A DNA stretch of 64,000 nucleotides. It comes from Alphaproteobacteria bacterium. Lineage in GTDB: Bacteria > Pseudomonadota > Alphaproteobacteria > UBA828. Made by a program: the position numbers and the translations under genes. Location: assembly GCA_965214705.1 (NCBI GenBank), contig OZ243972.1, forward strand, positions 2,752,001 to 2,816,000, given 5' to 3'. Each line of letters starts with the position of its first letter. Position 1 is the stretch's first letter. The notes below the pieces were generated by a model. It made no database searches, was not told the origin of the DNA, and saw only the letters and a program-made list of their open reading frames with translations. Below are positions 24,864-30,010 of this stretch, one piece after another.

Positions 24864-26909
24864 ATGGGCCGGCTCGCGTCCGACATCGGTGGCACCTTCA
24901 CCGATCTGGTCTACTTCGACGATGCGCAAGGCTCGCTGCGCACCGCGAAATCCCTCACCACGCCGGGCGACCTGACGCAGGGCGTGATCGACACCGTCGA
25001 GCTCTCGGGCCTCGCGCCCGGCGAGGTGGACTTCTTCGTCCACGGCGGGACCACGGTCATCAACGCCATCACCGAGCGCAAGGGTGCCCGGACCGCACTG
25101 GTCACCACCGCCGGCTTCCGCGACGTGCTGGAGATTCAGCGCGGCAACCGGCCGGACCTCTACAACCTGCGCTTCGAGAAGGAGCGGCCTTTCGTGCCGC
25201 GGCTGCTCCGCTTCGAGGTGCGCGAGCGGGTCGATGCGGCGGGCACCGTGCTCCGGCCGCTGGAGAAGTCCGACCTCGACCTCGTCGTCGCGCGCTGCCG
25301 GGAGGAGGAGGTCGAGGCAATCGCGATCCAGTTCCTCCACAGCTACGTGGCACCCCGGCACGAGGCCGAGGTAGCGGCCTACTTGCGGGAGCGCCTGCCG
25401 GACGTGAGCATCACCGCCTCCCACGAGATCACCCGCGAGTGGCGCGAGTACGAGCGCGCCAACACGGCGGTCCTCAACGCCTACGTCCAGCCCATCGTGC
25501 AGACCTACTTCGGGCGGCTGGAGGAGGCGCTGGGCGGTGCCGACATCCGCTGCGCCTACGCCGCCATGCAATCCAACGGCGGCACCACCAGCTTCTCCTG
25601 GGCCAAGGAGCACCCGATCACGCTCATGGAATCGGGGCCGGCCGCAGGCTGCAACGGCGCCGCCATCGTCGGCGACCTCTGCGAAGAACCCAGGGTGATC
25701 TACCTCGATATCGGCGGCACCACCGCCAAGTGCACCACCATCGAGGACGGCACGCCCAAGGTGACCACCGAGTACCGGCTGGAATACAGCCGCACCCAGT
25801 TCGGCTATCCGCTGCGCGTGCCCGTGGTGGACATCGTCGAGATCGGGGCCGGCGGCGGCTCCATCGCCTGGTTCGACAAGGCGGGGCTGCTCAAGGTGGG
25901 GCCGGTCTCGGCCGGCGCCGATCCGGGGCCCGCCTGCTACGGCCGGGGCGGCACCGAGCCCACCGTGACCGACGCCAAGCTCATTACCGGGGTCATCAAC
26001 GCCACCAACTTCGCCGGCGGGCAGTTCGACCTCGACGAGGGCAAGGCCCGCGCCGCCATGGAGAAGATCGCGAGCGGCCTCGGCACGGACGTGGTGGAGG
26101 CGGCGGTCGCGGTCATCCGCACGGTCGAAGCCAACATGATCAACGCGCTGAAGCTGGTCTCGATCCAGCGAGGCCACGATCCGCGCGACTTCGCGCTGGT
26201 GGTGGGCGGCGGCGGTGGGCCCATGCACGGCGCGCCGCTCGGCCGTGAGCTCGGCGTGAAGGAGGTCATCGTGCCGCTCTACCCCGGCCTCTTCTCCGCC
26301 TGGGGGATGCTCGCCACCGAGCCCCGGCGCGATTTCATGCAGACCGTGCTGCGCCGCGCCGAGGAAGTGGAGGCGGGCGACGTGCGCTCGGTCTTCGCCG
26401 GTCTCAGGGAGGAGGCGGAGCGCTACTACCAGACTGACGCCCACATGGGGGAAGCGGAGATTGCCTACGAAGGCCGAATCGACCTCCGCTATCTCGGGCA
26501 GGAGCACCCGGTAACCGTGCTCGTGGACATCGAGACCGCCGAGGTCGAGGCGATTCTCGCAGCCTTCCACGATGCGCACGAGAAGACCTACACCTTCCGC
26601 CTCGACGACACGCCGGTCGAGTTCGTGACCTACCGGCTCACCGCGTCCGCCAAGGTGCCGCGGCCGGAGATGACGAAGCTGGCTTCGGACGGCCGCTCGA
26701 TCGAGGCCGCGACGCGGCCCGCGCGCGTGGCCGACTTCGCGGAGGACGGCCGCCACGAGGCTGCGGTCTACGAGCGGGACCGCCTGCCTCCCGGCGCGGA
26801 GCTGACCGGGCCGCTGATCGTGGAGGAGGCCACCGCCACCACGCTCGTTCACCCCGGCCAGACGCTCCGGGTCGACGACTACGGCTTCCTCCGCATCACC
26901 GACGCCTAG
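24864..26909 (+). CDS. Hydantoinase A/oxoprolinase family subunit
   Basis: DIGGTFTD, REYER, ESGPAAG and SAGADPGP motifs. Confidence 0.92.
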   Translation: MGRLASDIGGTFTDLVYFDDAQGSLRTAKSLTTPGDLTQGVIDTVELSGLAPGEVDFFVHGGTTVINAITERKGARTALVTTAGFRDVLEIQRGNRPDLYNLRFEKERPFVPRLLRFEVRERVDAAGTVLRPLEKSDLDLVVARCREEEVEAIAIQFLHSYVAPRHEAEVAAYLRERLPDVSITASHEITREWREYERANTAVLNAYVQPIVQTYFGRLEEALGGADIRCAYAAMQSNGGTTSFSWAKEHPITLMESGPAAGCNGAAIVGDLCEEPRVIYLDIGGTTAKCTTIEDGTPKVTTEYRLEYSRTQFGYPLRVPVVDIVEIGAGGGSIAWFDKAGLLKVGPVSAGADPGPACYGRGGTEPTVTDAKLITGVINATNFAGGQFDLDEGKARAAMEKIASGLGTDVVEAAVAVIRTVEANMINALKLVSIQRGHDPRDFALVVGGGGGPMHGAPLGRELGVKEVIVPLYPGLFSAWGMLATEPRRDFMQTVLRRAEEVEAGDVRSVFAGLREEAERYYQTDAHMGEAEIAYEGRIDLRYLGQEHPVTVLVDIETAEVEAILAAFHDAHEKTYTFRLDDTPVEFVTYRLTASAKVPRPEMTKLASDGRSIEAATRPARVADFAEDGRHEAAVYERDRLPPGAELTGPLIVEEATATTLVHPGQTLRVDDYGFLRITDA

Positions 26910-26934
26910 CGTCCCGCTCTTGAGTAACTTCTCT

Positions 26935-28359
26935 CTAAGCCGTTGACATAGAGGCATTTGTGTTTTTGTTGTCGTCGTCGATCTCGACCAGTTGGAAGCC
27001 GAGCTTCTTGGCCTGTCGACGGAGCGAAGAGAACTTTCGGTCCAGGCGTCGGCTCTCGTAGACCTCCATCCCCTTCTCGGCATATTGCTGGCCGCGGGTC
27101 ACCATCAGGTAGATCAGGCAGGCGAGTTCTCGGGCGGTGGCGACAACGGCTACGCTGGTGTCCATCCGGGCGAGGCGGCTGCGGTGCTTGGCGCCGATGA
27201 AGGTTTGGCTGGTGCGAGCGGTCATGGCCGCCATGCGCAGTGCCTGGCCAACGCGGTTGACCACCTTGGGCCCCCGGCCCGGCAACGGTTTGCCGCCGCT
27301 GATCCTGGTCCCAGGCGCCAGCCCCAGCCAGGAACTGAAGTGCTGTGCGGAGGGAAAGGCGGAGAAGTCAGGACCGATCTCGGCGGCGATCACCAGGGCA
27401 GTGTTGACGCCGACGGTGGGGATTGCGGTGAGATCGACCCCCATCATCTTATGCAGCGCCATAGCCATGGCCTTATCCTGCCCGCGGAGCGCCCTGCCGC
27501 TGCTGCTTGGGGTCTCGTTCGACGCCGTGCCCGATGATCCGACACTGGGAGTGTCCTCGGGCGTACCCTCATCCGTCGGATCGTCCGGCGGGGTCAGGTG
27601 CTCAACCTCCGCCATGATCCGCGCCTCGCAGTCCGCGATCTGCTGCTCCAGAAAGTCGTAGCGCTGCATCGCCTGCTCAAGCGCGAACAGGTGCTCCTCG
27701 CGCCAAGTGCCCTCCAGGCTCGCGGCAATCGTGTCGGCGCTGGCCTTGATCCGCCTGTCGCGAAGCGACGCCAGCCGCCCGGGGTCGCGCTCGCCGGCGA
27801 TGATCGCCCGCAGGATGCGCTCACCCGTCTTCCCCATGATATCGCTGATCACCGAGTCCAGACGCACGTTCATCTGGGTCAGCGCCTTCTGCATATGCAG
27901 CACGCAGCGAGAGCGGTCCTCGATCAACTGCTTCGCCTGGCGCATGAAGGAGCGCAACGGGCAGATCGCGTCGCCCGGCCGGAAGGCGCCGCGCAGAAGG
28001 CCGTAGGACATCAGCTGCCAGATCCACTGGCAGTCCAGCACATCGCTCTTGCGCCCGCCGATCTGCTTCGTCATCCGGGGCGGCACAAGCATCACCTCGA
28101 AGCCGGCTCGATCCAGGACCTCGTAAACCGGGATCCAGTAGACCGAGGTCGACTCCATCGCCACCTTCGTCACACCGCACGACTTCAGCCACTCGGCCAT
28201 CGCATCCAGGTCGCGCGTGAACGCGCCGAACTCCCTCACCGGTTCCTCGGCTCGCTCCGGATCCACCGCCACGAAGTGCCGGTCCTTGCCGATGTCGATC
28301 CCGGCGCAATTCGGGTGCACTACCTTGAGGCGCTGCCTCCTTCTCCGCTTGCGCGCCAT
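26935..28359 (-). CDS. IS110 family recombinase/transposase
   Basis: RuvC-like DEDD residues (GIDIG, MESTS, KSDVLDC); Tnp-domain WLGLAPGTRISGG serine loop; AVVATARELA. Confidence 0.95.
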   Translation of the reverse strand: MARKRRRRQRLKVVHPNCAGIDIGKDRHFVAVDPERAEEPVREFGAFTRDLDAMAEWLKSCGVTKVAMESTSVYWIPVYEVLDRAGFEVMLVPPRMTKQIGGRKSDVLDCQWIWQLMSYGLLRGAFRPGDAICPLRSFMRQAKQLIEDRSRCVLHMQKALTQMNVRLDSVISDIMGKTGERILRAIIAGERDPGRLASLRDRRIKASADTIAASLEGTWREEHLFALEQAMQRYDFLEQQIADCEARIMAEVEHLTPPDDPTDEGTPEDTPSVGSSGTASNETPSSSGRALRGQDKAMAMALHKMMGVDLTAIPTVGVNTALVIAAEIGPDFSAFPSAQHFSSWLGLAPGTRISGGKPLPGRGPKVVNRVGQALRMAAMTARTSQTFIGAKHRSRLARMDTSVAVVATARELACLIYLMVTRGQQYAEKGMEVYESRRLDRKFSSLRRQAKKLGFQLVEIDDDNKNTNASMSTA

Positions 28360-28374
28360 CGAGAGCCCTCCCAA

Positions 28375-28650
28375 ACTCCGTTGACGTTGCGGGTGGGGAG
28401 GAACCGCGGCGAAGTCTCAATCTCTTGAACGAGGTCACGGGCGAACCCGCGCCATCAGTGACAGAAGCCGATCACGGTTCGGGCCAAGCTTCCAAACGGG
28501 TGCCCTCGCACGCCACTGAAGGGACGGCCTCGTCTGCCCTACCCGCTACCACTTCACGCTTCAACCGTCGAAGACTCAACCCCAGTCGAAGACTCTACCC
28601 CCAGTTACTTCAGCGACTGAGCCGCTGCGCCGCAGTGGTGGTGGCTTCTA
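28375..28650 (-). ncRNA. Candidate IS110 bridge RNA
   Basis: Non-coding leader with several hairpins (28436-28451, 28500-28511) and a CTCTTGA heptamer (28422-28428) identical to the element end at 26917-26923. Confidence 0.55.
28567..28603. repeat. Tandem 18-19 bp repeat GTCGAAGACTC(A/T)ACCCC(C)A inside the IS110 leader
   Basis: Two adjacent copies, each containing a GTC-GAA-GAC mini-hairpin. Confidence 0.8.
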
Positions 28651-28651
28651 A

Positions 28652-29853
28652 GGAAGGTCTGATCAAGTCGGGTGTGCCATGATTTTCGTAGGAGTCGCAG
28701 ATTGGATGATCGGGTCATGGCACAGGCGAGCTTTTCGGAACTGGAGCACGACTTGAAGAAGCGCCGGACGCGGCGCGAGCTGTTCCTGGAGAAGATGGAC
28801 AAGCTGGTTCCCTGGGAGCGGCTGGAACGGCGGATCGAGCCGTTCTATCCGAAGGCGGGGCGCGGTCGGCGCCCGTACCCGCTTGCGGTGATGCTGCGCG
28901 TTCACTGCGTGCAGCTGTTCTACAACCTGAGCGATCCGGGGATGGAGGACCTGCTCTACGAGGTGGAGTCGGTGCGGCGTTTCGTGGGGCTGCGGCTGGC
29001 GGAGGCGTTGCCTGACGAGACCACCATCCTGAACTTCCGGCATCTTCTGGAGAAGCACGGCCTGGGCGAGGGTCTGTTCGAGGAGATCAATGCGCACCTG
29101 GCGTCGCGCGGCCATTGGCTGCGCACGGGGACGATCGTTGACGCGAGCATCATCGAGGCGCCGTCGTCGACGAAGAACCGGCGCCGCGCACGGGACCCTG
29201 AGATGCGTCAGACGAGGAAGGGCAAGCAGTGGTATTTCGGGATGAAGGCGCACATCGGGGTGGACGCCGGGTCGGGTCTGGCACACAGCGTGGTGACGAC
29301 GGCGGCCAACGCAAGCGACGTGACGCAGGCGGGAGCGCTGCTGCATGGCGCTGAGACGACGGCGTGGGGCGACGCGGGCTACCAGGGGGTGGAGAAGCGT
29401 CCCGAGCACCGGGATGGCGGTGTCGAGTGGCGTGTGGCGATGAAGCCGGGGCGGCGCCGGCTGCTGGCCGGGGGTGGCGCCGAAGCGGCGGCCGAGACGC
29501 GCAAGGCGTCGGTGCGGGCGAAGGTGGAGCATCCGTTCCTGTACGTGAAGCGGCACTTCGGCTACGCCAAGGTGCGCTACCGGGGCGTGGCGAAGAACAG
29601 GCAGCGCATCGCGTTGCTGCTGGGGTTCTCGAACCTGCTGATCGCCGGCCGCTACGCGACGCAATGACAGGGGAGCAGTCCGCCCGCCGCCGGCGGGACG
29701 ACGGGGAATGCGGCGGATCGACGCGGATATCGCCCGTTCGCTCCGTATCCCGCGACAAAAGCAGCCCCCGGCCTGCCGGCAATATCGTCGAGCTTCAAAT
29801 CCAAGCCCCCTCTCCCCCTCGAAGCCGCCAAGATGGGGTTGTTCAGACTTTCC
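28652..29853 (+). mobile_element. IS5 family (IS5 subgroup) insertion sequence
   Basis: TIRs GGAAGGTCTGATCAA (from 28652) and GGAAAGTCTGAACAA (reverse strand, ending 29853); CTAA target duplication at 28648-28651 and 29854-29857. Confidence 0.95.
28717..29667 (+). CDS. IS5 family transposase
   Basis: PDETTILNFRHLLE, IVDASII, WYFGMKAHIGVD, GDAGYQG and RAKVEHPF motifs. Confidence 0.95.
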   Translation: MAQASFSELEHDLKKRRTRRELFLEKMDKLVPWERLERRIEPFYPKAGRGRRPYPLAVMLRVHCVQLFYNLSDPGMEDLLYEVESVRRFVGLRLAEALPDETTILNFRHLLEKHGLGEGLFEEINAHLASRGHWLRTGTIVDASIIEAPSSTKNRRRARDPEMRQTRKGKQWYFGMKAHIGVDAGSGLAHSVVTTAANASDVTQAGALLHGAETTAWGDAGYQGVEKRPEHRDGGVEWRVAMKPGRRRLLAGGGAEAAAETRKASVRAKVEHPFLYVKRHFGYAKVRYRGVAKNRQRIALLLGFSNLLIAGRYATQ

Positions 29854-29911
29854 CTAAGGGTTACGTGACGTTAGGTAGACCGTGGGGTTTCCCCGCCACC
29901 GCCGCTATTCT

Positions 29912-30010
29912 CGTCATGCCCGGACTTGATCCGGGCATCCAACTATCTCAAGGGTTTCGTCGGAGTGTTGTGTGAACACGTGGATGGCCGGGACAAGCCC
30001 GGCCATGACG
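29912..30010. repeat. Alphaproteobacterial palindromic REP/RPE-like element
   Basis: CGTCATGCCCGGACTTGATCCGGGCATCCA ... TGGATGGCCGGGACAAGCCCGGCCATGACG; inverted arms, each with an internal hairpin. Confidence 0.85.

Follow-up and report, generated by a model that had tools for sequence, protein, structure and literature searches.

A candidate bridge RNA in an IS110-family element whose guide segments covary with the insertion site and the right end

IS110 and IS1111 elements have been known since 2024 to use bridge or seek RNAs, and these have later been mined at scale, with many structures reported to "visibly deviate" from that of IS621; RNA guiding itself has been described experimentally for IS621, ISEc21, ISEc11 and ISPpu10. 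Here we ask whether the same mechanism explains a locus in an alphaproteobacterial genome (GTDB lineage UBA828; GenBank assembly GCA_965214705.1, contig OZ243972.1), in which the gene of a large IS110-family recombinase is preceded by a long non-coding leader, and, if so, how the guides of such an RNA are laid out relative to the element that encodes it. The DNA analyzed is a stretch of 64,000 nucleotides (positions 2,752,001 to 2,816,000 of the contig), referred to throughout as the window, and all coordinates are those of the window. Its minus strand carries an IS110-family insertion sequence (IS) of 1.73 kb (1728 bp with one core copy). We conclude that this is very probably an active or recently active IS, with a 5' leader that gives rise to a bridge (seek) RNA by which the DEDD/serine recombinase is guided.

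Ends, core and two covarying guides

The source genome (G000; 7.9 Mb in three contigs) contains ten copies of the element at 99.8-100% identity, and the ends are sharp in all ten. In coding orientation every copy starts ...[C/G]TT[G/A]GAAG|CCACCACC and finishes ...GTTACTCAAGAG|, and beyond the right end the sequences of the copies are unrelated. The 5' flank thus reads [C/G]TT[G/A]GA-AG while the 3' flank is variable, and AG is present at both junctions of each copy. A preliminary description of the locus, made from the letters of the window alone, had placed the element at 26917..28650 and proposed collecting other copies as a check. The ten copies fix both ends: the right end at 26917 stands, and the left limit had been set 4-6 nt too far out, the left end proper lying at 28644, with an AG core just outside it at 28645-28646.

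Related elements define the extent of that core. In two other genomes of the same genus (G004 and G005), relatives form head-to-tail arrays that read ...CTCAAG-AG-CCTCCACC; where a member of that subfamily stands alone, the junction is TGTTGTTA-AG-CCTCCACC. Since the tandem (right end-AG-left end) and single (flank-AG-left end) junctions have AG alone in common, the core is 2 nt long. The ten copies and the relatives' junctions together show site-specific insertion in which the two junctions have a short core in common and nothing beyond it is duplicated. Recombination at this AG would join a circular right end-AG-left end donor to the target, and the product would read flank-AG-left end...right end-AG-flank.

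No long terminal inverted repeat was present among the 25 longest inverted pairs, and the best match between the terminal 60 nt had 7 identities, a value equalled in 111 of 300 shuffles. A search of one copy with its flanks (L007) over 31 genomes matched pieces of the flanks, none of which spanned the insertion point. Neither a circle junction nor an empty site was found in the reads and contigs of four sequencing runs, uncovered parts not being counted as evidence; joints inside the open reading frame in those runs had short sides and came from other organisms.

Several loci bear rearranged or partial copies. Head-to-tail arrays of two to four related elements, with a single AG between right and left ends, occur at L025, L027, L028 and L038 and at the G004 loci L067-L084, and could come from donor-donor recombination. 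One of the ten copies (L010, G000:C3:1872739-1874606) has a 136-bp tandem duplication in its leader, equivalent to window positions 28491-28626, at whose junction guide-AG-C is joined to about position +23 of the left end; this would fit recombination between two AG sites and, equally, slippage at the microhomology GCT. Related subfamilies are represented by partial copies at G000:C3:1733818-1734679 (81% identity) and G000:C2:567088-567453 (90%), and the first of these carries a different target guide, CTGTTAAG, as do elements in G012 and G005.

To follow the leader across lineages we collected relatives from 20 genomes of the genus besides G000 and 78 loci from other species at 54-94% protein identity, the latter from Alpha- and Gammaproteobacteria and from metagenome-assembled genomes (MAGs) labelled Binatia, Dehalococcoidia and Thermodesulfobacteriota. 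All of them have the same leader architecture. It has two parallel modules, and in each module of the window's element a hairpin is directly followed by an 8-nt segment that matches DNA at one junction.

In module 1 that segment is UUUGGAAG. Nine of the ten copies in G000 have the flank TTGGA followed by AG, which agrees with the guide at seven of seven positions, and the window copy has TTAGA followed by AG, which would leave a G.T wobble. To keep the comparison from being circular, the left end of each relative was set by the alignment column (MAFFT) of the window's left end and not by the guide. Guide positions 2-8 were identical to flank plus AG at 7/7 in 30 of 37 rows and at 6/7 or better in 33; the four poor rows were L061, L063, L095 (one-column alignment shift) and L098. 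Among 22 distinct target guides, 16 matched their flanks at 7/7 and 19 at no fewer than six positions, with a mean of 6.18/7 for cognate and 3.40 for non-cognate combinations, of which 29/462 reached at least 6. The module-1 segment pointed out in the preliminary description therefore covaries with the flank across relatives.

Some copies have inserted into the guide-coding DNA of other copies, right after the AG of the guide (L034 in G008; L070/L085 in G004). Thus 7-8 nt of guide identity make a sufficient target, and the element's own guide gene is an insertion target. Target use in G000 appears to be limited to the 7-nt half-site TTGGAAG. Half-match recombination in vitro has been reported for IS621 in a 2026 preprint, and a half-site mode of insertion would fit the natural events here, as the ten insertions in G000 have only TTGGA-AG in common.

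The segment of module 2, UUCAAGAG, matches the right end of the element instead. With the right end set by alignment alone, this donor guide agreed with it at 7/7 in 54 of 63 rows and at six or more positions in 59. Seven donor-guide variants were found, each with a matching end: UUCAAGAG, UUCGAGAG, UUCGGGAG, UAUGAGAG, UAUGAAAG, UAUAAGAG and GAUGAGAG. The imperfect rows comprise three from one subfamily with G opposite A (which would be a G.T wobble), two with one mismatch, and four that are alignment failures or truncated contigs. The match had first been seen as plus-strand CTCTTGA at 26917-26923, with covariation of the heptamer and the element end across homologues named as the decisive test; the ten copies confirm that this is the end, and the heptamer does covary with it.

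A conserved leader fold, the remaining arms and the recombinase

The leader occupies 28360-28644, so that 285 nt of non-coding DNA lie upstream of the recombinase gene and only 18 nt downstream. The preliminary description had given about 290 nt with two parallel hairpin modules, both of which are present as written. We folded 32 distinct leaders with RNAalifold and then counted pairs on the alignment: 87.8% of cells were paired overall, compared with at most 45.6% when partners were slid. Eighteen pairs had changes on both sides, and the covariation score was reached by none of 500 shuffles. Helices 2, 3, 4, 6 and 7 were 97-100% paired; the outer helix (64%) and an extra 3-bp helix added manually (45%) are not supported.

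In this fold both guide segments lie in loop strands. A 4-bp GGCC/GGCC helix closes the internal loop of module 1 around its inner hairpin; the 3' strand of the loop consists of the 8-nt target guide and three further nucleotides, and the 5' strand of a G, a hypervariable hexamer and CA-N. Module 2 is enclosed by a 7-bp helix, and the donor guide forms its 3' strand. Module 1 is a true internal loop; in module 2 about one base remains unpaired on the 5' side in the consensus, which brings the donor guide nearer to a one-sided bulge. The window's own subfamily has in addition an 18-nt tandem duplication in the 5' leader (about 28584-28601; GGGGTAGAGTCTTCGACT beside GGGGTTGAGTCTTCGAC) that all other subfamilies do without.

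The variable hexamer of loop 1 is a candidate guide for the right flank. From 75 insertion records, removal of tandem junctions and duplicates left 51 insertions with 24 hexamer types. The hexamer is complementary to the 3' flank from +1, with the C that follows it opposite the G of the core: cognate combinations had 3.39 of 6 pairs and non-cognate ones 2.46, at offset 0 only, and the mean contiguous run at family level was 1.87 compared with 0.77 +/- 0.22, a value reached by 0 of 5000 permutations. A column scan likewise found right-target position RT+2 complementary to alignment column 45, the fifth base of the hexamer, in 16 of 25 rows. These comparisons of sequences would support a third arm at the level of the clade, but not in the ten copies of G000, and a full right arm was found at 0 of 342 genomic TTGGAAG sites. 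The preliminary description had noted that CGTCCC in the flank (26910-26915) matches leader positions 28526-28521. The match is real; it occurs in one of the ten copies only and is one base off the register of the clade. Among random 14-mers, about 2% contain a 6-nt run, and about 2.7% do if longer runs are included. The remark in that description that the other two expected arms did not match cleanly still stands, the third being seen at clade level only and the left-end arm not having been found. Positions +1 to +5 of the left end vary freely (CCACC, CCTCC, CTTCC, TAACC, CGTTC...).

A further covarying motif links the leader with the right end. Leader positions +37..+41 are the reverse complement of right-end positions -12..-8, in four covarying variants (GTAAC/GTTAC, CAAAC/GTTTG, GGAAC/GTTCC and GAAAC/GTTTC). 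The repeat matches at 5/5 in 20 of 24 rows, and the four misses were judged to be artefacts of alignment or end assignment. Its placement is asymmetric, one arm being 36 nt away from the left end and the other 7 nt away from the right end, and it is 7 nt long in one subfamily. On this pattern, the protein may read the motif as a short subterminal inverted repeat, or the motif may be an additional guide.

The recombinase matches PF01548 (DEDD_Tnp_IS110) at 4.4e-23 and PF02371 (Transposase_20) at 3.1e-12, and scores 280 bits against the NCBIfam model NF033542 ("IS110 family RNA-guided transposase"; cut-off 140). Residues D22, E69, D106, D109 and S354 are invariant in an alignment of the window protein and six relatives; their catalytic roles are taken over from IS621, to which both domains align. 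The intact DEDD-plus-serine protein of 474 aa reported at the outset is therefore borne out, and its PPDDPTDEG... insert (about residues 258-298) is an acidic, proline-rich, variable linker that is shorter in some relatives. Plasmid annotations give relatives generic "IS110 family transposase" labels only. Two plasmid-borne recombinases are 43-49% identical and have different leader sequences (L119, from a Citrobacter koseri plasmid, and L120, from a Paraburkholderia plasmid); the Paraburkholderia copy ends ...CTTGAGAG, as in the clade of the window element.

Table 1. Features of the IS110-family element in the window, with the evidence for each.
Feature	Position	Strand	Basis
Whole element, including both AG core copies	26917..28646	-	ten copies with exactly the same ends; core from tandem junctions in relatives
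Right end read by the putative donor guide; coding strand TCAAG + core AG (AG = 26918-26917)	26917..26923	-	identical to positions 2-8 of UUCAAGAG
Right arm of the 5-nt subterminal inverted repeat; coding strand GTTAC	26924..26928	-	reverse complement of leader +37..+41
Recombinase gene; 474 aa from ATG; DEDD (RuvC-like) domain and Tnp domain with serine	26935..28359	-	Pfam, NCBIfam, alignment
Predicted bridge RNA core; outer helix (28546-28537 with 28398-28389) around target- and donor-binding modules	28389..28546	-	RNAalifold; outer helix weak
Helix around donor module; GAACCGU (28480-28474) with GCGGUUC (28407-28401)	28401..28480	-	helix 4: 99.6% paired; changes on both sides in 5/7 pairs
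Donor guide; module 2 3' strand UUCAAGAG	28422..28429	-	covaries with right end; AG invariant in 32/32 leaders
Module 2 hairpin; UGAUGG CGCGGG UUCG CCCGUG ACCUCG	28430..28457	-	helix 7: 98.6% paired; changes on both sides in 6/11 pairs
Target guide; loop 1 3' strand UUUGGAAG; positions 2-8 = left flank (5 nt) + core AG	28489..28496	-	flank match, covariation
Loop 1 inner hairpin; UGG-C-GUGC GAGG GCAC CCG	28497..28515	-	helix 3: 100% paired in 32 leaders, nearly invariant
Loop 1 5' strand (G, variable hexamer UCCCUU 28524-28519, CAG); candidate right-flank guide	28516..28525	-	clade-level complementarity
Left arm of the inverted repeat (5 nt); GUAAC at +37..+41 of the leader	28604..28608	-	in the 5' leader fold, single-stranded and directly downstream of a predicted hairpin
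Left junction of the window copy; flank TTAGA (28651-28647) + core AG (28646-28645)	28645..28651	-	sequence; ten-copy alignment

Next to the IS110 copy lies an IS5-family element (window 28648-29667 and beyond; DDE_Tnp_1 plus DUF772 transposase at 28717-29667), whose end sequence has about 20 further occurrences in the genome. Between the GGAAGG terminus of this element and the IS110 copy there are 5-6 bp, and the copy lies at a point that looks like the IS5-family target duplication (CTAA or TAA). On the other side, a hydantoinase/oxoprolinase gene with three Pfam domains (24864-26909) stops 7 nt before the IS; the insertion is intergenic. Several runs labelled sponge metagenome contain parts of the stretch (shares 0.07-0.47), which is a hint of habitat and no more.

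RNA guide or DNA repeat

RNA libraries give a weak indication that the leader is transcribed. A 783-nt contig from one library, at about 94% identity, spans 27869-28586 and thereby the 5' part of the gene and the leader; at that identity it comes from a related element. A second library yields short contigs over the gene, with depth over 28320-28521. We infer that the RNA is made and that it binds the recombinase, and so too the chemistry of recombination.

A number of results weigh against reading the leader as a bridge RNA. The library contigs give no strand, ends or level and may include DNA carry-over, and the 783-nt contig continues past its aligned part. Scans for sigma-70-like promoters found 0 sites in the leader and 0 in one tandem junction. 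Folded alone, the window leader is no more stable than expected (z = +1.40, with 94 of 100 shuffles at least as stable), so the structural evidence had to be comparative, and many of the compensatory cells trace to a single split between alpha- and gammaproteobacterial leaders and hence are not independent events. An Rfam 15 scan of window positions 26000-30000, with E up to 10, gave four weak hits, none on the leader. Within G000, the right-arm target AAGGGA predicted by UCCCUU is absent from all ten insertion sites, where contiguous pairs to the hexamer number 3, 0, 0, 0, 1, 0, 0, 0, 2 and 2, no better than at the 342 genomic TTGGAAG sites. For the left end, scans of the 205-nt core and of the whole leader revealed no covarying column, and no guide was seen by eye in the 5' strand of module 2 or in the 3' tail. 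Finally, a leader segment identical to an end could be an RNA guide or a repeat at the DNA level, and the identity alone does not tell the two apart.

This last point opens the way to an alternative in which the leader's copies of flank and end act as DNA: they would be sites inside the element for recombinase binding or synapsis, evolving together with the ends in the manner of the subterminal repeats of other transposons. Sequence identity is equally compatible with this, the covarying 5-nt inverted repeat between leader and right end suggests that repeats read at the DNA level or by protein may exist here, and the only candidate for a leader transcript is the RNA-library contig from a relative about 94% identical. 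However, the helices that frame the loop strands with the two segments carry compensatory changes, a sign of selection on an RNA fold, and IS621, ISEc21, ISEc11 and ISPpu10 are experimentally RNA-guided in published work. Moreover, the target segment changes with the flank; as the flank lies outside the element, a repeat in DNA of the element's own termini cannot account for this. We consider a purely DNA-level role improbable.

It is more improbable still that the leader is only a 5' untranslated region (UTR) for translational control, with flank and end matches left as relics of self-insertion or gene conversion. The 5' UTR of ISPpu9 is reported to fold and inhibit translation (PMC12288879), a Shine-Dalgarno sequence lies about 17 nt past the 3' strand of the outer helix, and self-insertions into leaders do happen (at L034 and L070/L085). 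Yet 22 target guides match their own flanks and seven donor guides their own ends, and relics should have slipped out of register in some lineages; regulation and guiding could, besides, coexist. As for coincidence, finding a matching 7-mer in 290 nt is nothing unusual when a single element is considered, but the gap between cognate and non-cognate target guides (6.18/7 versus 3.40), the 16 of 22 perfect guides and the 54 of 63 donor rows already refute it, leaving a negligible chance that the heptamer matches are accidental. The proposal of an RNA-guided recombinase, made in the preliminary description, is hence supported by guide covariation together with a covariation-backed RNA structure that holds both segments in its loop strands.

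Bridge recombinases are under development as programmable genome-editing tools, and nearly all that is known of their mechanism comes from IS621 and close relatives. The present element and its relatives amount to a natural reprogramming series, with 22 target and seven donor guides and a recombinase very distant from that of IS621. Their reversed layout and apparent short half-site bear on the need for four-arm recognition and on off-target (half-match) insertion. For the host genome the meaning is modest: a recently expanded IS, present in ten copies, that disrupts or abuts other genes and IS elements.

Comparison with characterized IS110 and IS1111 elements

With IS621 (PMC11208160; Hiraizumi et al. 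2024, PMC11208158) the element shares a DEDD-plus-serine recombinase, an upstream gene, here predicted, for a non-coding RNA, separate target and donor modules and a 2-nt core included in the guides. Also common to both are tolerance of G.T wobbles and a spacer of 2-3 nt that separates the closing helix from the core complement and that in IS621 holds the handshake bases. The protein is only distantly similar to the IS621 recombinase, whose structure has been solved (phmmer E = 6.5e-10 over two short stretches; 474 versus 328 aa). The core in the element's frame is AG here and CT in IS621 (Durrant et al. 2024, PMC11208160), and each module here has its bottom-strand guide of 7-8 nt on the 3' strand, where IS621 has it on the 5' strand. 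The preliminary description was thus correct in calling the orientation opposite to that of IS621; the order of the guides is reversed. An IS621-type guide layout is not found in the element's frame and appears only when the element is turned round with respect to the RNA. Seen from the RNA, the geometry would be that of IS621, with a CT core and the body of the element inverted, and the strand that reads the left end in IS621 would here read the right end; the left-end guide was not found in the leader scans, nor was a junction promoter detected in the promoter scan.

Pseudomonas relatives of the element (54-58% protein identity) place this inversion next to a known system. They have the same leader architecture and insert at AG in sites resembling repetitive extragenic palindromic (REP) sequences, namely GT[AG]GG-AG|CGGG, the reverse complement of the ISPpu10 target ...CCCG-CT-CCTAC (preprint 10.64898/2026.03.19.712850). 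Their loop 3' strand, (C)GUAGGAG, has the sequence that a right-target guide of the IS621 type would need at that site, and their 5' strand, UAGCCCG+C, that of the left-target guide. Site and guide strands together imply that the RNA-target geometry is conserved, with core CT in the RNA's frame and an inverted element body, the end distal to the recombinase being read by the strand of right-donor type. ISPpu10, as described in that preprint, shares with these relatives the same REP dinucleotide, and its RNA-target pairing is equivalent after reverse complementing. It differs in following IS621 logic, with a CT core and a junction promoter, and hence has the opposite orientation at the shared site.

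By its features, ISPpu9 of Pseudomonas putida KT2440 (PMC12288879) would be the closest characterized relative, a homology drawn from those features and not from sequence. It too belongs to the IS110 group, lacks terminal inverted repeats, has at each boundary an invariant AG at which it recombines, and possesses a long structured 5' UTR, which in ISPpu9 is presumed to contain a bridge RNA and is reported to hold a strong native promoter, with no junction promoter. The window element targets TTGGA-AG and ISPpu9 a REP sequence, and the main text of the ISPpu9 paper (PMC12288879) does not map guide segments. The IS1111 seekRNAs (ISEc11, ISPa11 and ISKpn4; Siddiquee et al. 2024, PMC11187229) share the order of complements, that of the top strand lying 5' of that of the bottom strand, and, in short form, what may be a subterminal inverted repeat, 5-7 bp here. 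In IS1111 elements, by contrast, the non-coding region is downstream and not upstream, and the repeat described is 11-13 bp (PMC11187229), or 7-17 bp according to Durrant et al. 2024 (PMC11208160); the repeat here is far shorter than 11-13 bp and asymmetric.

In the main-text literature searched we found no guide map for an AG-core element and no account of the inverted layout, half-site use or 5-nt motif in this clade. The leader type may already sit in the covariance models or ortholog tables of PMC11208160 or 10.64898/2026.10.21.760802, and we claim no priority. As a kind, an IS with a bridge or seek RNA is already known; its guide layout is possibly undescribed. Tentatively, and with the odds rather against it, the clade could be regarded as a distinct architectural class of bridge RNA, probably including ISPpu9. 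Its recombinases measure about 440-475 aa and come from Alpha- and Gammaproteobacteria as well as from MAGs assigned to several other phyla. Such a class would retain the RNA-DNA geometry of IS621 and carry the element backwards, so that the right end, distal to the recombinase, is read by a 3'-strand guide of the right-donor-guide (RDG) type; a half-site of 7 nt, made up of 5 nt and the core, would suffice as target, which turns guide-coding DNA into a target as well, and the fourth arm would be replaced by the 5-nt motif that covaries between the 5' leader and the right end.

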